Assembly: GCA_965220965.1 (NCBI GenBank)
Contig: OZ244852.1
Location: forward strand, 2,080,001-2,144,000
DNA from: Candidatus Marinacidobacterium sp.
GTDB lineage: Bacteria > Acidobacteriota > Vicinamibacteria > Marinacidobacterales > Marinacidobacteraceae
Length of the DNA stretch: 64,000 bases
Direction: 5' to 3'
Part shown: positions 29,009 through 35,599 of the stretch, piece after piece
How the letters are laid out: each line of letters begins with the position of its first letter
How positions within the stretch are numbered: the first letter of the stretch is position 1
Notes under the pieces: generated by a model
Told to the model about the DNA's origin: nothing
The model's database searches: none
The model's input: the letters and a program-made list of their open reading frames with translations, nothing else
Translations under genes and position numbers: made by a program

Positions 29009-29506
29009 ATGACCTCACCCCCGACGAAGCCGGAGCCGTCGCCGCCCACCTCGGCGCAGACGGCGGCGCGGGCGCTTGCCGAGGCCCCGGTTCCGCAGGA
29101 CGAGCTGACCCGGTGGCTCTACAGCACGCTGGATTCCCACCGGCTCGAAGCGCGCGAGGACCGTCGGGACATGGAGGGACGGCTGAACGAGCAGTTCTCC
29201 TCCGTCGATCGTCGGCTCTCCGTACTGGAGCGCCAAGGGGCCGCCGTGGAAGGCCGGCTCTCCGCGGTGGAAGGTCAGGTCGCCGAACACAGGGCCGAGA
29301 CCCGGGAGCAGTTCAAGGCGGTCAACGCCACCCTGAGCGAGCTCTGCGCGCGGATGGATCGCATGGAGGCGGCGTCGGCCGCCGAAAAGGAGCAGCGGGA
29401 CCGGCTATTCCGCGTCATCGCGTGGCTCGTTCCGGCCCTGATCGGCATCTTCGGGGTGGGGCTCGCTGTGTTCGGGCAGTTTCTGCTGCAGCGCCTCGCC
29501 GGCTGA
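29009..29506 (+). CDS. C-terminally membrane-anchored coiled-coil protein, copy 1 (165 aa)
   Basis: Pro-rich N-terminus, 4 heptads, C-terminal TM helix. Alternative in-frame start at ATG 28904 (MNTKK) with a GGAGG RBS. Confidence 0.8.
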   Translation: MTSPPTKPEPSPPTSAQTAARALAEAPVPQDELTRWLYSTLDSHRLEAREDRRDMEGRLNEQFSSVDRRLSVLERQGAAVEGRLSAVEGQVAEHRAETREQFKAVNATLSELCARMDRMEAASAAEKEQRDRLFRVIAWLVPALIGIFGVGLAVFGQFLLQRLAG

Positions 29507-29766
29507 AGACTCCAGGCCACCGTCTCCCGGCGACGGCCCGAGAAACTGACAACGCGGCGCCGGGTGACAGGTTTCCGGCGGCGGTGCGTCTTGCTCCTGT
29601 CGGAGAGCCCAGCCCCCGCCCTGACACCCAGGTGCGGCACGCGGGCTCCGGGAGCATCCGCATGGACACGAAGAAGCCCACAGCCGTTGCCCAGGGCCCG
29701 CCGGTTGCCGCCGCACAGGCCCGGCCCTACACTGGAGTCAAGCCGCCTGCGCTGGTTCAACCCCCG

Positions 29767-30381
29767 ATGACCTCACCCCCGAAGAAGCCGGAGCAGTCGT
29801 CGCCGACCCCCGCGCGGGCGCTTACCGAGGCTCCCGTTCCGCAGGACGGGCTCGGTCTGTGGCTCTACAGCGCGCTGGATTCCCAGCGGCTCGAAGCCCG
29901 CGAGGAGCGTCGGGACATGGAGGGGCGACTGAACGAGCGCTTCTCGGAACTCGGCGGCAAGGTCTCCTCCGTCGATCGCCGGCTCTCCGCCGTCGAACGC
30001 CAGGGGGCCGCGGTGGAAGGCCGGCTCTCCGGGGTGGAAGGCCGGCTCTCCGCCGTTGAGACTGGGCTCGCCGAACTTGGGAAGCGACTCGACCACCAGG
30101 GCGCCGAACTCCGAGGGCACATTGACAGCCAAATCAGCGAGCTCAGAGGGCAAATCGACAACCTCAGAGAAGAGACTCGCGCCGATCGGAACGCCATCGT
30201 CGCCACCCTGAGCGAGCTCTGCGCACGGCTCGACCGCATGGAGGCGGCCTCGGCCGCCGAGAAGGAGCAACGGGACCGGCGGTGGCGCGTGATCGCGTGG
30301 CTCGTTCCCGCCCTGATCGGCATCTTCGGGGTGGGGCTCGCTGTGTTCGGGCAGTTCCTGCTGCAACGCCTCGCCGGCTGA
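29767..30381 (+). CDS. Membrane-anchored coiled-coil protein, copy 2 (204 aa)
   Basis: Paralog with heptads plus 2 hendecads; C-terminal TM. Confidence 0.8.
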   Translation: MTSPPKKPEQSSPTPARALTEAPVPQDGLGLWLYSALDSQRLEAREERRDMEGRLNERFSELGGKVSSVDRRLSAVERQGAAVEGRLSGVEGRLSAVETGLAELGKRLDHQGAELRGHIDSQISELRGQIDNLREETRADRNAIVATLSELCARLDRMEAASAAEKEQRDRRWRVIAWLVPALIGIFGVGLAVFGQFLLQRLAG

Positions 30382-30517
30382 ACACCCGGGCCGCCGTCTC
30401 CCGGCGGCGGCCCGAGAAACTGACAACGCGGCGCCGGGTGGCAGATTTCCGCCGGCTTTGCGTCTTGCTCCTGTCGGAGAGCCCACCCCCCGCCCTGACG
30501 CTCAGGTCCGGCGTTAG

Positions 30518-30715
30518 CAACCTGTTGACGAAGTCACGCGGCCCGGTTCTCCCGGTAGGGGCTCGAGCGGCGATCCATCCCGCCCGAACCGCGCCCCTTC
30601 GGGGCGCTCATCGTTGCGTTTCGCTCGGAATATTCCCGATATTCCTCGCTCACGCGCCTTGTCGGCCGGGCGCCTCACCGCTCTCGGCGCTGCACGGGAC
30701 TTCATCAACAGGCTG
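30518..30715. mobile_element. MITE-like element 1
   Basis: Terminal inverted repeats CAACCTGTTGACGAAGTC / GACTTCATCAACAGGCTG. Absent from the equivalent site in other array units; TTAG on the left flank. Confidence 0.75.
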
Positions 30716-30841
30716 CCGGCTCCCGGGAGCACCCGCATGGACACGAGGAAGCCCACGGCCGCTGCCCAGGGCGCGCCGGTTGCCGCCGCCCAGGCCCGGC
30801 CCTACACTGGAGTTAAGCGGCCTGCGCTGGTTCAACCCCCG

Positions 30842-31465
30842 ATGACCTCACCCCCGAAGAAGCCGGAGCCGTCGCCGCCCACTTCGGCGCGGACGGCGGC
30901 GCGACCGCTCGCCGAGGCCCCGGTTACCCAGGACGGGCTGACCCGGTGGCTCTACAGCGCGCTGGATTCCCACCGGCTCGAAGCCCGCGAGGACCGTCGG
31001 GACATGGAGGGGCGGCTGAACGAGCAGTTCTCCTCCGTTGATCGCCGGCTTTCCGCAGTCGAACGCCAGGGGTCCGCGGTGGACAGCCGGCTCTCCGCAG
31101 TGGACGGCCGAGTCTCCACAGTTGAAGGTCGGCTCTCGAAGGTAGAGAACCGGCTCTCGAAGGTAGAGAACCGGCTCTCGGCTGTGGAAGGCCGGCTCTC
31201 CGCAGTGGAAGGCCGGCTCTCCGCGGTTGAGGGCCAGCTCGCCGAACACAGGGCCGAGACCCGGGAGGAGTTCAAGGCGGTCAACGCCACCCTCAGCCAA
31301 ATCTGCGCGAGGCTCGACCGCATGGAGGCGGCCTCGGCCGCCGAGAAGGAGCAGCGGGACCGGAGGTGGCGTGTGATCGCGTGGCTCGTTCCGGCCCTGA
31401 TCGGCATCTTCGGGGTGGGGTTCGCTGTGTTCGGGCAGTTCCTACTGCAACGCCTCGCCGGCTGA
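30842..31465 (+). CDS. Membrane-anchored coiled-coil protein, copy 3 (207 aa)
   Basis: 10 heptads (SAVEGRL/SKVENRL type), no hendecads; C-terminal TM. Confidence 0.8.
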   Translation: MTSPPKKPEPSPPTSARTAARPLAEAPVTQDGLTRWLYSALDSHRLEAREDRRDMEGRLNEQFSSVDRRLSAVERQGSAVDSRLSAVDGRVSTVEGRLSKVENRLSKVENRLSAVEGRLSAVEGRLSAVEGQLAEHRAETREEFKAVNATLSQICARLDRMEAASAAEKEQRDRRWRVIAWLVPALIGIFGVGFAVFGQFLLQRLAG

Positions 31466-31724
31466 ACACCCGGGCCGCCGTCTCCCGGCGACGGCCCAAG
31501 AAACTGACAAAGCGCCGCCGGGTGGCAGGTTTCCGGCGACTTTGCGTCTTGCGTCTCTCGGAGAGCCCAGCCCCCGCCCTGACACCCAGGTGCGGCACGC
31601 GGGCTCCGGGAGCATCCGCATGGACACGAAGAAGCCCACGGCCGTTGCCCAGGGCGCGCCGGTTGCCGCCGCCCAGGCCCGGCCCTACACTGGAGTTGAC
31701 GAAATCGCGCCGGTTCGAACTCCG

Positions 31725-32396
31725 ATGACCTCACCCCCGACGAAGCCGGAGCCGTCGCCGCCCACCTCGGCGCAGACGGCGGCGCGGACGCTCGCCGAGG
31801 CTCCGGTTCCCCAGGACGGGCTGACCCGGTGGCTCTACAGCGCGCTGGATTCCCACCGGCTCGAAGCGCGCGAGGACCGTCGGGACATGGAGGGGCGGCT
31901 GAACGAGCAGTTCTCCTCCGTCGATCGCCGGCTCTCCGCCGTCGAACGCCAGGGGGCCGCGGTGGACAGCCGGCTCTCCGGAGTGGAAGGCCGGCTCTCC
32001 GCAGTGGAGACGGGGCTCGCCGAGCTCGGGAAGCGAATCGACCGCCAGGGCGCCGAAATCCGAGGGCGCAGCGACAGCCAGTTCGCCGAACTCCGAGGGT
32101 ATATCGACAGTCAGGTTTCCGAGCTCCGGGGGCACATCGACAGCCGGGTCAGCGATCTCAGAGGGCAAATCGAAAACCACAGAGCCGAGACCCGCGCCGA
32201 TCGGAACGCCATCGTCGCCACCCTGAGCGAGCTCTGCGCGCGGATGGATCGCATGGAGGCGGCGTCGGCCGCCGAGAAGGAGCAGCGGGACCGGCGGTGG
32301 CGCGTGATCGCGTGGCTCGTTCCGGCGCTGATCGGGATCTTCGGGGTGGGGCTTGCTGTGTTCGGGCAGTTCCTCCTGCAACGCCTCGCCGGCTGA
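31725..32396 (+). CDS. Membrane-anchored coiled-coil protein, copy 4 (223 aa)
   Basis: Heptads plus 4 hendecads; C-terminal TM. Confidence 0.8.
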   Translation: MTSPPTKPEPSPPTSAQTAARTLAEAPVPQDGLTRWLYSALDSHRLEAREDRRDMEGRLNEQFSSVDRRLSAVERQGAAVDSRLSGVEGRLSAVETGLAELGKRIDRQGAEIRGRSDSQFAELRGYIDSQVSELRGHIDSRVSDLRGQIENHRAETRADRNAIVATLSELCARMDRMEAASAAEKEQRDRRWRVIAWLVPALIGIFGVGLAVFGQFLLQRLAG

Positions 32397-32656
32397 CGGC
32401 CCCGGGCCGCCGTCTCCCGGCGGCGGCCCGAGAAACTGACAAAGCGCCGCCGGGTGGCAGGTTTCCGGCGACTTTGCGTCTTGCACCTTCCGGAGAGCCC
32501 GGCCCCCGCCCTGACACTCAGGTCGGACTGGCGGGCTCCGGGAGGATCCGCATGGACACGAAGAAGCCCACGGCCGCTGCCCAAGGCGCGCCGGTTGCCG
32601 TCGCGCAGGCACGTCCCTACACTGGAGGTGAGCCTCCGGCGCTCGTTCGACCCCCG

Positions 32657-33163
32657 ATGACCTCACACCCAAAGAAGCCGGAGCAGTCCTCGCCGACCCC
32701 GGCGCGGGCGCTTACCGAGGCTCCCGTTCCGCAGGACGGGCTCGGTCTGTGGCTCTACAGCGCGCTGGATTCCCAGCGGCTCGAAGCCCGCGAGGAGCGT
32801 CGGGACATGGAGGGGCGACTGAACGAGCGCTTCTGGGAACTCGGCGGCAAGGTCTCCTCCGTCGATCGCCGGCTCTCCGCCGTCGAACGCCAGGGGGCCG
32901 CGGTGGAAGGCCGGCTCTCCGCCGTTGAGACTGGGCTCGCCGAACACCGGGCCGAGACCCGGGAGGAGTTCAAGGCGGTCAACGCCACCCTGAGCGAACT
33001 CTGCGCACGCCTCGATCGCATGGAGGCCGCCTCGGCCGCCGAGAAGGAGCAGCGGGACCGGCGGTGGCGCGTGATCGCGTGGCTCGTTCCGGCCCTGATC
33101 GGGATCTTCGGTGTGGGGCTCGCTGTGTTCGGACATTTCCTGCTCCAACGCCTCGCCGGCTGA
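32657..33163 (+). CDS. Membrane-anchored coiled-coil protein, copy 5 (168 aa)
   Basis: Short stalk, no hendecads; C-terminal TM. Confidence 0.8.
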   Translation: MTSHPKKPEQSSPTPARALTEAPVPQDGLGLWLYSALDSQRLEAREERRDMEGRLNERFWELGGKVSSVDRRLSAVERQGAAVEGRLSAVETGLAEHRAETREEFKAVNATLSELCARLDRMEAASAAEKEQRDRRWRVIAWLVPALIGIFGVGLAVFGHFLLQRLAG

Positions 33164-33300
33164 AGGCTCCGGGCCACCGTCTCCCGGCGACGGCCCGAGA
33201 AACTGACAACGCGGCGCCGGGTGACAGGTTTCCGGCGCCTTTGCGTCCTGCACCTTCTGGAGAGCCCAGCCCCCGCCCTGACGCTCAGGTCCGGCGTTAG

Positions 33301-33549
33301 CAACCTGTTGACGAAGTCACGCGGCCCGGTTCTCCCGGTAGGGGCTCGAGCGGCGATCGCCCCCACCGGGAGGACTGGCCCCGCCCGAACCGCGCCCCTT
33401 CGGGGCGCTCATCGTTGCGTTTCATTCGGCATCCCGATGCCGGTTCTCCCGGTAGGGGCCCTCCCTCACGCGCCTTGTCGGCCGGGCGCCTCACCGCCAG
33501 TTCTCCCGGTGGGGGCCTCGGCGCTGCACGGGACTTCATCAACAGGCTG
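33301..33549. mobile_element. MITE-like element 2 (contains four 20-nt inserts)
   Basis: Same terminal inverted repeats and insertion site as element 1; longer because of internal micro-insertions. Confidence 0.75.
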
Positions 33550-33651
33550 CCGGCTCCCGGGAGCACCCGCATGGACACGAAGAAGCCCACAGCCGTTGCC
33601 CAGGGCGCGCCGGTTGCCACCGCACAGGCCCGGCCCTACACTGGGGTCAAA

Positions 33652-33846
33652 CAGCCCGTTGACAAAGTCCCGCGGCGTTCGAGCGGCGATGCATCCCGCC
33701 CGAACCGCACCCCTTTGGGGCGCTCATCGTTGCGTTTCATTCGGCATCCCGATGCCGGTTCTCCCGGTAGGGGCCCTCGCTCACGCGCCTTGTCGGCCGG
33801 GCGCCTCACCGCTCTCGGCGCTGCACGCGACTTTATCAACGGACTG
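33652..33846. mobile_element. MITE-like element 3, between the promoter and ATG of copy 6
   Basis: Terminal inverted repeats CAGCCCGTTGACAAAGTC / GACTTTATCAACGGACTG, flanked by TCAA(A) and TTAA. The empty site in copies 2 and 3 has a single TCAA or TTAA. Confidence 0.78.
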
Positions 33847-33875
33847 TTAAGCCGCCCGCGCCGGTTCGACCCCCG

Positions 33876-34568
33876 ATGACCTCATCCCCGAAGAAGCCGG
33901 AGCAGTCGTCGCCGACCCCGGCGCGGGCGCTTGCCGAGGCCCCGGTTCCACAGGATGGGCTGGGTCTGTGGCTCTACAGCGCGCTGGATTCCCAGCGGCT
34001 CGAAGCCCGCGAGGAGCGTCGGGACATGGAGGGGCGACTGAACGAGCGCTTCTCGGAACTCGGCGGCAAGGTCTCCTCCGTCGATCGCCGGCTCTCCGCC
34101 GTCGAACGCCAGGGGGCCGCGGTGGAAGGCCGGCTCTCCGCGGTGGAGACCGGGCTCGCCGAGCTTGGGAAGCGACTCGACAACCAGGGCGTCGAACTCC
34201 GAGGGCGCAGCGACAACCAGTTCGCCGAGCTTCGGGGTTACATCGACAGCCAGGTTTCCGAGCTCCGGGGTCACATCGACAGCCAGGTTTCCGAGCTCCG
34301 AGGTCACATTGACAGCCAGGTCTCCGAGCTCCGAAGTTACGTCGACAGCCAGATCGCCGAACTCAGGGCCGAGACCCGGGAAGGGTTCAAGGCGGTCAAC
34401 GCCACCCTCAGCCAGATCTGCGCGAGGCTCGACCGCATGGAGGCGGCCTCGGCCGCCCGGGAGGAGCAACGGGAGCAGCGGCGACGCCTGCGCGCCTGGC
34501 TCGGTTCCGCGCTGATCGGCCTCCTCGGCGCGGGGCTCGTCGTACTGGGGCAGTTCCTGCTCCAGTGA
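33876..34568 (+). CDS. Membrane-anchored coiled-coil protein, copy 6 (230 aa)
   Basis: 6 hendecads (SELRGHIDSQV type); divergent C-terminal TM. Confidence 0.8.
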   Translation: MTSSPKKPEQSSPTPARALAEAPVPQDGLGLWLYSALDSQRLEAREERRDMEGRLNERFSELGGKVSSVDRRLSAVERQGAAVEGRLSAVETGLAELGKRLDNQGVELRGRSDNQFAELRGYIDSQVSELRGHIDSQVSELRGHIDSQVSELRSYVDSQIAELRAETREGFKAVNATLSQICARLDRMEAASAAREEQREQRRRLRAWLGSALIGLLGAGLVVLGQFLLQ

Positions 34569-34666
34569 CCGGGGCGCCGTAGGCCCGGGCCCCGAGGCCC
34601 ACCCCGCCACCACGCCGCCCGGCGGGAGCGGCGGCCCGCGGTCGTGCGGCGACGCCGCGCGGGGCC

Positions 34667-35599
34667 TCAGCGGGACGGGACGTCCACTTCGCCGCGGATG
34701 TCCCCGTAGCGGATCCGCGAGCGCTTCGTCCCGCGAACTGTGAGCCCTCCCTCGACATCGCGGACCTCGACGCCGCCGGAGCCGGCGTCCTCGATCCGGA
34801 CCTCGCCACCGACTCCCTCGATCCCGATGCTCCCCGAGCCATCCTCTCCGACGAGCACGCTCCCGCCAACGACGCGGACGCGAACGCTCCCGCCCCGATC
34901 TTCGAGGCGCACATCGCCCCCCACGTCGGCGATGCGGACGCTTCCGGACCCGTCGTCAACGGTCACGCTGCCCTCCACCCCCTCGATCCGGAGGCCTCCC
35001 GAACCGTCCTCCACGGTCACATCGCCGGCGATCTGGCGGATCTCGAGGCTCCCCGAACCGTCCCGCACCTGCGCCTCCGCGGCCCGCTCGATCGTCAGCG
35101 ACCCGGACCCGTCCTCGATGTCCACCGCCCCGACATCGGAGATCCGGACGGAGCCGGAACGGTCCTCCAGCCGGATCGCCGAGACGGCCGGAACACGGAC
35201 ATCGAGGTCGATCCGGGCGTAGTCCCGGTCCCACCAGCCGCCGTTCCGCTCGGGGACACGCGCCTCCAGCCGTCCGGATTCCAGCGTCACCGACAGATCT
35301 TCCAGGATCGCCTGGCTCGACGCGCACAGCGTCGCGGTCACGAGCACCTCATCCAGGTCCGCCTCGCCCCGGATCGCGACCGCCCCCGGGCCGCTCCGCA
35401 CGAAGAGCGAGTCCGTCGCCGACTCCGAGAGACTCACGGTGTCCGTGGATTCGCAGCGGTCGCCGTCATAGGCGAGCGCCGTCCAGCCCGGCCCGTCTCC
35501 GTCGATGTGGACGACGCAGCCCGACGCCAGCGCCGCGCCGATCGCCAGAACCCCTCCCCGAACCCATCGGCCTGTCCCGTTTCCCGTGCTCGCTGTCAT
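34667..35599 (-). CDS. DUF4097/adhesin-like beta-strand repeat lipoprotein
   Basis: GGAGG RBS, lipobox LASGC, many DGSGS(V/L)RI repeats. Confidence 0.75.
   Translation of the reverse strand: MTASTGNGTGRWVRGGVLAIGAALASGCVVHIDGDGPGWTALAYDGDRCESTDTVSLSESATDSLFVRSGPGAVAIRGEADLDEVLVTATLCASSQAILEDLSVTLESGRLEARVPERNGGWWDRDYARIDLDVRVPAVSAIRLEDRSGSVRISDVGAVDIEDGSGSLTIERAAEAQVRDGSGSLEIRQIAGDVTVEDGSGGLRIEGVEGSVTVDDGSGSVRIADVGGDVRLEDRGGSVRVRVVGGSVLVGEDGSGSIGIEGVGGEVRIEDAGSGGVEVRDVEGGLTVRGTKRSRIRYGDIRGEVDVPSR

Follow-up and report, generated by a model that had tools for sequence, protein, structure and literature searches.

Introduction

Mobile DNA is usually thought to need an enzyme gene of its own or recognisable ends of tens of bases. 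To our knowledge, the small dispersed repeats (SDRs) of Nostocaceae were for years the sole hint of mobile units of about 20 nt, and we know of no enzyme or mechanism for them. Elhai and colleagues are said to have described, in 2008, SDR1–8 of Nostoc punctiforme and other Nostocaceae as non-coding units of about 21–27 nt that lie inside miniature inverted-repeat transposable elements (MITEs) and other repeats, nest in their own copies and form a small predicted hairpin with compensatory changes; the authors reportedly favoured an RNA intermediate. Here we analyse a 20-nt sequence, the 20-mer, in a 64,000-nt stretch of a Candidatus Marinacidobacterium genome (contig OZ244852.1, positions 2,080,001 to 2,144,000; hereafter the window, with positions counted from its first nucleotide), where it interrupts copies of a MITE. 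The 20-mer is probably a non-coding, ultra-short mobile insertion unit, SDR-like in character, of a marine family of Vicinamibacteria-type acidobacteria.

Repetitive extragenic palindromic (REP) and REPIN sequences are imperfect palindromes of 20–40 nt, tagged at one end with GTAG (or CGTC) and accompanied by a cognate gene for a REP-associated tyrosine transposase (RAYT). MITEs, tens to hundreds of bp long, have terminal inverted repeats and a target-site duplication; some come with internal insertions or in modular variants, as do BOX modules and the ERIC elements that carry internal inserts. Elements of the IS200/IS605 type are moved by a Y1 transposase, insert 3′ of a fixed tetra- or pentanucleotide and leave the target unchanged. 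In R2-type target-primed reverse transcription, which needs a reverse transcriptase, a staggered second cut leads to a 2-bp target deletion, and we know of few other insertion mechanisms that remove a fixed 2 bp. Nor do we know of a fixed 2-nt target replacement in bacterial elements, the SDRs included.

The passages on SDRs in three papers present them as units of ~20 nt, suspected of mobility and restricted to Nostocaceae (PMC5861425, PMC4390886, PMC3116915); one of these passages puts SDR5 after the third nucleotide of HIP1 and before the fourth (PMC4390886), and another gives the confinement of SDRs to one lineage (PMC5861425). REP/REPIN elements are paired with RAYT transposases (Bertels & Rainey 2011, PMC3116915), and REPs can sit in small palindromic targets, as GTAG-23 of T. 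roseum does within CCGSSCC(n3,4)GGSSCGG (Di Nocera et al. 2013, PMC3733652). Our search of the literature by motif strings, genus name and related terms, with supplements outside its reach, returned no description of the 20-mer element.

Occurrences in the window

An initial annotation, made from the letters of the window, had placed a 20-nt micro-insertion at six places. The degenerate 20-mer CCRGTYCTCCCGGTRGGGGC matches all six with 0 mismatches (chance expectation 0.02; 0 of 100 shuffles reached six), and no further match appears in the 64,000 nt at up to two mismatches. Five of the matches lie on the + strand (30543, 33326, 33440, 33497 and 33755) and one on the – strand (33359). They occupy four positions, sites 1 to 4, within three copies (A, B and C) of one ~180-bp MITE with terminal inverted repeats (TIRs) of ~18 nt:

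30518–30715, + strand: 198-bp MITE copy A; filled at site 1 and empty at the other three sites (TIR search and alignment to 33 other genomic copies).
30543–30562, + strand: 20-mer of form v1 (CCGGTTCTCCCGGTAGGGGC) at site 1 of copy A, in place of the GT of empty copies (cgcggc-GT-tcgagc).
30576–30577, + strand: empty site 2 of copy A (CA in gatcCATccc), central in the left palindrome of the MITE.
30642–30643, + strand: empty site 3 of copy A, the TT of cccgatATTcctc, inside the hairpin GAATAT-tcccg-ATATTC.
30681–30682, + strand: empty site 4 of copy A, the CT of caccgCTctcgg.
33301–33549, + strand: 249-bp MITE copy B, a paralogue of copy A with the same tandem-array flanks; filled at all four sites.
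33326–33345, + strand: 20-mer v1 at site 1 of copy B (pattern match; a contig of public run X3 agrees).
33359–33378, – strand: 20-mer of form v3 (CCAGTCCTCCCGGTGGGGGC), inverted, at site 2 of copy B (pattern match; a public contig agrees).
33440–33459, + strand: 20-mer v1 at site 3 of copy B (pattern match; a contig of public run X4 agrees).
33497–33516, + strand: 20-mer of form v2 (CCAGTTCTCCCGGTGGGGGC) at site 4 of copy B (pattern match; filled/empty comparison).
33652–33846, + strand: MITE copy C, 195 bp, of the other MITE subfamily, ~100 bp downstream of copy B; site 3 alone filled.
33755–33774, + strand: 20-mer v1 at site 3 of copy C (pattern match; a run X3 contig agrees).

The empty sites of copy C are GT at 33677–33678 (site 1), 33692–33693 (site 2) and 33812–33813 (site 4). 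Each of the four sites has an empty sister in the window (copy C for site 1, A and C for site 2, A for site 3, A and C for site 4), as the annotation had claimed. Its example of CCGC-T-CTCGG against CCGC-insert-CTCGG is correct as well; in the register of the 20-mer the pair reads CACCG[CT]CTCGG and CACCG[20-mer]CTCGG.

A fixed exchange of 20 nt for 2 nt

The annotation had proposed aligning filled with empty sites. Every strict 20-mer in four genomes was taken and its 13-nt flanks (at most one mismatch each) were sought 0–8 nt apart. Among the 39 flank classes with an empty counterpart, the commonest filler was exactly 2 nt in 35 and 1 nt in three, and one class was mixed. Because 20 nt come in and 2 nt go out, the net gain per insert is +18 nt, in agreement with the length classes of the MITE. 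The 2-nt fillers are diverse (GT, TG, CT, GC, GA, AT, CG, AC and GG), and comparison of flank classes and of pooled flank clusters revealed neither a target duplication nor a conserved flank at the insertion sites. Besides the occasional replacement of 1 nt, the base preceding the insert is sometimes turned to G, as at MITE sites 2 and 3; when it is G, the 20-mer has a terminal inverted repeat of at most GCC...GGC (3 bp).

The direction of change can be read from 20-mers that interrupt each other. In the relatives G001 and G002, a complete 20-mer lies within another, in place of the TG (positions 14–15) or GG (12–13) of its host, and in G014 and G021 doublets of period 18 have a 20-mer in place of another's terminal GC (19–20). 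Apart from the interruption, the host 20-mer in the G001 and G002 nests is the consensus. Deletion could not regenerate that consensus, so the filled state is derived; judged from these sequences, the direction of change is insertion. This speaks against the excision footprint that the annotation had offered as an alternative. Its other proviso, that the empty sites might be deletions from an ancestral repeat, is contradicted both by the nested copies and by relatives rich in the MITE and nearly without 20-mers (see below). The empty states also complete the symmetry of the MITE, at site 2 through an ATGCAT centre and at site 3 through the hairpin GAATAT-tcccg-ATATTC.

A longer transposon that leaves a 20-nt footprint was considered and rejected: half-sites of 11–14 nt are either chance-level occurrences in genes or nested insertions, and we found no element with the 20-mer halves as its ends. 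Anecdotally, several insertion sites lie at palindrome centres or loops, with no enrichment in a single-stranded DNA (ssDNA) fold.

Other host repeats

Besides the MITE, the 20-mer is hosted by REP hairpins (at three positions), a hairpin repeat Y, a repeat that we call 'family 2', and the 20-mer itself. In G001, a T-ending form occupies two positions of the REP hairpin, replacing GC between GGAGCGCC and TCTCCAGAGCGGC and GA between GCCGCTCTCCA and GCGGCA; in repeat Y of the same genome it is CT between GCGCCGGG and CCCGCCCGGC that has given way to a 20-mer. A third REP position is occupied in G002, in the opposite orientation.

'Family 2', an unrelated hairpin repeat of the source genome (G000), consists of a G-rich tract, a hairpin GGGAGGGGG-loop-CCCCCTCCC and then a long gaatcg...cgattc hairpin. 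Four copies are filled, one is degenerate and nine are empty:

Contig 1, 329573, 329873, 1161495 and 2446877, with a degenerate copy at 935974: 'family 2' filled by the v2 20-mer.
Contig 1, 701369, 701564, 770266, 2865439 and others: 'family 2' empty.

No Rfam family covers the MITEs or 'family 2', the matches being microRNA noise alone (E 0.08–0.2). In the pooled sequence, 380 occurrences of the 20-mer fall into 67 flank clusters, 37 of them with at least two members; this is a rough count of contexts, since a single site can give several clusters where subfamilies have diverged, and some other clusters are recombinant junctions. Read from these alignments, the 20-mer is a 20-nt unit that has been inserted many times, in both orientations, with fixed ends and a fixed 2-nt target loss, into several unrelated repeats and into itself.

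Distribution among relatives

Relatives were counted with the pattern at up to one mismatch in 41 genomes including G000 (reversed-pattern control, 0–1). The 20-mer is present in 20 of the 41, at 2–753 copies each: it occurs in 19 of 24 genomes of the same family and in none of 16 from the two other families of the order. Copies are most numerous in G021 (753); G002 has 363 and G006 has 65. Density reaches 52 in 200 kb of G021 and 21 in 100 kb of G014, and in these two genomes at least seven positions of a homologous MITE are occupied, in both orientations. Exact v2 was also sought in a public genome collection, where, among the matches listed (at least 80 records), nearly all are metagenome-assembled genomes (MAGs) titled Vicinamibacteria, Candidatus Marinacidobacterium or Acidobacteria. 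The only exact v2 outside acidobacteria-titled bins among the matches listed lies on a 6-kb contig (L186) in a bin titled Gammaproteobacteria, perhaps through mis-binning or transfer.

As for the MITE itself, a search of 25 genomes found it in 12. G007 has 35 MITE matches and two 20-mers, and G009 has 36 MITE matches (165 first-look candidates) and 17 20-mers; because these genomes are MITE-rich and 20-mer-poor, the MITE exists largely without the insert. The copy number of the 20-mer varies independently of its host repeats.

Variants and predicted hairpin

Sampling of 4.77 Mb gave 269 occurrences in 51 variants. The unit is non-coding and measures 20 nt, or 21 with a frequent 5′ G. Form v2 (102 occurrences) is identical in seven genomes of four genera, the MITE backbones of which are 73–85% identical to the window copy. 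Among the genomes sampled, v1 is confined to three of the source genus, and the T-ending form, which dominates G001, is nearly limited to that genome (35 of its 37 copies found).

A form with C10G + G17C (24 copies, one- and two-mismatch derivatives included) occurs in G001 only and essentially in one host repeat. Counts for the pair 10–17 are CG 240, GC 24, CC 3, CA 1 and AG 1. This covariation supports a small putative hairpin that would pair positions 9–11 with 16–18 around a GGTR loop, and the compensatory variant argues against a CCGG/CCGG pairing as the likely fold.

Two resemblances were tried and set aside. None of the three CRISPR repeat types of the source genome resembles the 20-mer. 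For a tRNA origin, v1 was compared with the T-arm and acceptor 3′ strand of tRNA-Thr (contig 1, 2633501–2633575), with a 2-nt shorter loop and a gapped local score of 11/20; v2 fits worse, the compensatory variant breaks the pairing, and the likeness was judged generic.

Site occupancy in the source genome

The source genome (3.25 Mb, 2 contigs, 71–73% G+C) holds 39 matches at up to three mismatches, all on contig 1; this is the genome-wide count that the annotation had suggested, and it ties the 20-mer chiefly to the MITE. Thirty matches lie in MITE copies, four in 'family 2' and five elsewhere; the last five, with 2–3 mismatches, look chance-like. By form, there are 16 copies of v1, nine of v2 and six of v3. 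BLAST located 37 places, and 34 MITE copies were aligned, three truncated or internally deleted ones included. No site is filled in 15 of the 34, and the filled copies number 13 at site 1, 11 at site 2, six at site 3 and three at site 4; an apparent site-3 fill in the truncated copy m2466950 is an alignment artefact and was left out. Form is tied to site, with v1 in + orientation at sites 1 and 3, v2 or v3 inverted at site 2 and v2 in + orientation at site 4. A full-length element with the ends of the MITE was not found in this genome, all end pairs being 162–231 nt apart.

At contig 1, 961553–961572, the right flank of MITE site 4 (ctcggcg) follows a 3-mismatch v2, and long frames are open on both strands; this copy may be a MITE fragment or chance.

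Possible repeated hits, hitch-hiking and conversion

All six pairs of MITE sites fail the four-gamete test. Occupancy was mapped on a tree of the 31 full-length copies, with insert columns removed and the three truncated copies left out; support for this tree is weak, with no starred branch:

Site 1: 10 filled copies, 6 changes, 11 of 500 shuffles as low.
Site 2: 9 filled copies, 9 changes, 500 of 500 shuffles as low.
Site 3: 6 filled copies, 2 changes, 0 of 500 shuffles as low.
Site 4: 2 filled copies, 2 changes, 500 of 500 shuffles as low.

On the tree, the occupancy of sites 1 and 2 is homoplastic. At site 2, copy B has the gatC background of its paralogue A, and the other filled copies mostly have gatG; the ATGCAT centre that is filled in – orientation in G000 is filled in + orientation, 1 nt away, in G006. 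Both observations would fit repeated hits at a hot spot. Filling of site 3 goes together with a compensated change in the hairpin next to it, from GAATAT/ATATTC to GCATC/GATGC.

Copies A and B and their near flanks (30489–30746 and 33272–33580) are 100% identical except at sites 2–4 and the linked site-3 changes, and the spacer further upstream is ~90% identical. The pattern suggests a recent conversion tract centred on the MITE, and some occupancy patterns in this genome probably derive from conversion between MITE copies. One copy (contig 1, 1812099–1812236) contains a fusion for which a site-1 20-mer supplied the start and a site-3 20-mer the end. In G021 and G014, many short derivatives have likewise lost the MITE interior between two same-orientation 20-mers (G021, L021–L030, e.g. 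~149642/149696 and 163045/163099). Because such derivatives fuse 20-mers of different sites, same-orientation 20-mers appear to act as recombination points that delete the interior. Some short derivatives keep a + and a – 20-mer just inside both ends, which gives a longer perfect fold-back.

Mobility or passive spread

The leading alternative is that the 20-mer has no dedicated mobility: a few events of illegitimate repair or template switching would have copied it into breaks, and amplification of the hosts, conversion and recombination would have done the rest. We consider this unlikely, with several observations in its favour. Because six filled copies at site 3 need only two changes (0 of 500 shuffles as low), that site appears to have been filled in one or two events and then passed on with the MITE. 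The site-3 region of copy B shares the linked variants of other filled copies and its ends equal copy A, so that copy B looks partly mosaic, converted and not freshly hit. The largest flank clusters are single sites amplified in many host copies, deletion derivatives fuse 20-mers of different sites, and the searches for candidate enzymes found none. Repair fillers, however, should be ragged, whereas the ends of the 20-mer are fixed and 35 of 39 flank classes lose 2 nt. The unit has entered at least four unrelated host repeats, in both orientations, and itself at three defined positions. Subfamilies replace each other across hosts within one genome, as the T-ending form does at two REP positions in G001, and the 20-mer is identical across genera whose MITEs are 73–85% alike.

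Several further points weigh against a mobile unit. Independent events may be few. Unique DNA, which an element free to transpose might be expected to enter, contains almost no copies. Targeting of unpaired hairpin tips was tried and rejected, the replaced dinucleotides ranking 95, 38, 66 and 70 of 179 for unpairedness in the ssDNA fold of the empty MITE. The hairpin support is thin: one compensatory lineage, in one genome, is one evolutionary event. No mobilising enzyme was identified, and none of the four tested families (Y1/RAYT, RVT_1, IS110 and TnpB) tracks the 20-mer. As for current activity, no polymorphism of the 20-mer was seen between close strains.

If the 20-mer is a mobile insertion unit, a trans-acting activity would recognise it and copy existing units into new sites, the target being opened at two points 2 nt apart. 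Most copies (36 in G000, up to about 750 in relatives) would have arisen by hitch-hiking as host MITEs and REPs multiplied, after which recombination between same-orientation 20-mers would delete MITE interiors. The copies in G000, where none of the tested enzymes and no REP family of the relatives' type was found, would then probably be relics reshuffled by conversion between MITE copies. Within this genome, the annotation's phrase 'recurrently inserted' is borne out only in part, since the fills of site 3 seem to have been carried along by MITE copies and copy B looks partly converted.

A bolder version, which we put forward tentatively, is that a 20-nt hairpin-bearing unit forms a new class of ultra-small mobile DNA. 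An undiscovered enzyme, belonging to none of Y1/RAYT, reverse transcriptase, IS110 or TnpB, would excise exactly two target bases and ligate the unit; the unit would have been active across at least four marine acidobacterial genera and would drive the diversification of MITEs and REPs. If true, this would be the smallest mobile element outside cyanobacteria. In any case, the 20-mer is one of the smallest mobile-looking elements seen.

Candidate enzymes

Enzymes were sought with single models in sampled genomes that are 86–95% complete, so 'not found' here does not equal absent. The RVT_1 reverse transcriptase had no match in nine of nine 20-mer-bearing genomes searched, IS110 (PF01548) none in G000, G001, G003 and G006, and TnpB (PF07282) nothing above cut-off in ten of ten same-family genomes, G000 included. 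Y1_Tnp (PF01797) matched in six of 15 same-family genomes, and had no match in G000, G002 or G006. The two Y1_Tnp matches that were scanned score as RAYTs with NCBIfam NF047646 (82.5 and 97 bits; cut-off 80). With a RAYT protein as query, homologues were found in one of five genomes (G024) and none in G000, G002, G006 or G021, the last having the most 20-mers. The annotation had proposed looking for RAYT/Y1, IS110 or reverse transcriptase genes flanked by the 20-mer; none tracks it.

It is very unlikely that a RAYT (Y1/HUH) transposase moves the 20-mer as its REP. RAYT genes do exist in some relatives, all six genomes with Y1_Tnp carry 20-mers, and 20-mers often lie within the REPs that flank RAYT genes. 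At the three loci examined, though, the RAYT gene is flanked not by the 20-mer but by a different REP hairpin family (GGARCGCC + 8-bp hairpin + GGCA), of which none was found in G000, and the high-copy genomes named above yielded no RAYT. The stem of the 20-mer is just 3–4 bp, and no fixed target tetranucleotide accompanies it. The GTAG that had led the annotation to RAYT-associated REPs is internal and restricted to v1, the commonest and most widespread form having GTGG. Of the annotation's proposal, the ultra-short mobile unit is supported, extended by several hosts, self-nesting, the 20-for-2 exchange, subfamilies and presence in 20 of 41 genomes; its RAYT lead, like the excision footprint, is not.

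The relatives also carry classical REPtrons (L110 2500–4500, L108 2770–4140, L111 1–1240), each an NF047646 RAYT gene with inverted flanking REP arrays in tandem units of 31, 80 and 85 nt. If the RAYT frame is extended upstream as far as the preceding stop, the upstream arrays come out as repeated peptides.

It is most improbable that selection for some function, for instance protein binding or DNA-uptake-type signalling, has built up the 20-mer: its very strong conservation across genera and its high copy numbers in some genomes would suit this, but it arrives as a 20-nt block for 2 nt and not via point changes, lies almost solely inside selfish-looking repeats and itself, and ranges from 0 to 753 copies among genomes of one family.

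An artefact of the assembly or of the library (an adapter or primer), which the annotation had listed as a possible undoing, is ruled out because contigs of public runs and many separately assembled genomes (20 of 41) carry the 20-mer, which moreover holds fixed positions in a multi-copy MITE with matching empty sites. The contigs come from three studies and cover sites 1, 2 and 3 with 0 differences: a 527-nt contig of run X3 spans 33150–33431 (copy B, sites 1 and 2), one of run X4 spans 33402–33489 (copy B, site 3) and another of X3 spans 33717–33809 (copy C, site 3). They are short and end at repeats; no contig bridges the entire stretch, and the source sample may itself be the best holder. 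Runs X1 and X2, with 0.04 of the sequence words, were left aside. Joints between 20-mer copies in run contigs stem from other MITE copies or organisms and are uninformative on this locus.

Comparison with described elements

The closest known phenomenon is the SDRs, to which the 20-mer can be likened by description alone, as an analogue at most and not a member by descent. Like them, it is a non-coding dispersed unit of ~20 nt, embedded in other repeats (the MITE, REP hairpins, Y and 'family 2') and nested in itself (at 12–13, 14–15 and 19–20), with precise insertion sites and confinement to one lineage; the precision is that of SDR5 in HIP1 in the passage cited above, and of the 20-for-2 exchange here. 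Its putative hairpin has one compensatory lineage (C10G + G17C, 24 copies, one genome), next to three half-changed copies. The hosts differ, being Acidobacteriota-type MAGs by record titles and not cyanobacteria, as does the replacement of 2 nt, and the failure to find RVT_1 in nine carrier genomes contrasts with the RNA intermediate reportedly favoured for SDRs.

REP/REPIN elements share with the 20-mer a short, GC-rich, hairpin-bearing and dispersed character, and a genuine REP/RAYT system coexists with it in some relatives. The 20-mer lacks their long palindrome and terminal GTAG, does not flank RAYT genes, and is a guest inside REPs that is abundant where no RAYT was found. From MITEs it differs in having at most GCC...GGC as inverted ends and in a target that loses 2 nt and is not duplicated. 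As in ERIC and BOX elements, the differences between copies of a MITE are discrete blocks in fixed internal positions; here, however, the block recurs in unrelated repeats and in itself, in both orientations and with a constant exchange. R2-type insertion offers an analogy of outcome only, the 2-bp target loss, given that no reverse transcriptase was found in the nine carrier genomes. Unlike IS200/IS605 elements, the 20-mer has no conserved left flank and alters its target, and Y1_Tnp was not found in several high-copy genomes; bridge-RNA IS110 and TnpB systems are set apart by the searches reported above.

The 20-mer belongs to a barely known kind of element. That an SDR analogue exists in an unrelated phylum of high GC content suggests that nano-elements of this kind form a general layer of bacterial genome dynamics, one that has been overlooked. 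In these genomes the 20-mer accounts for much of the length variation and internal deletion of its host MITEs and REPs, and the spread from 0 to about 750 copies among sister genomes provides a comparative handle on the enzyme by gene-content profiling.

The surrounding gene array

From 29113 to 35000 and beyond, the window is a tandem array of paralogous genes with RLSAVEG-type coiled-coil repeats in variable number and a C-terminal hydrophobic tail. The three nested levels seen by the annotation, 20-mer in MITE in gene array, are upheld. MITE copies A and B lie in spacers between paralogues, and copy C breaks the stretch upstream of the internal ATG of the next one. The paralogues have unequal repeat numbers, with indels of 21 nt and longer.

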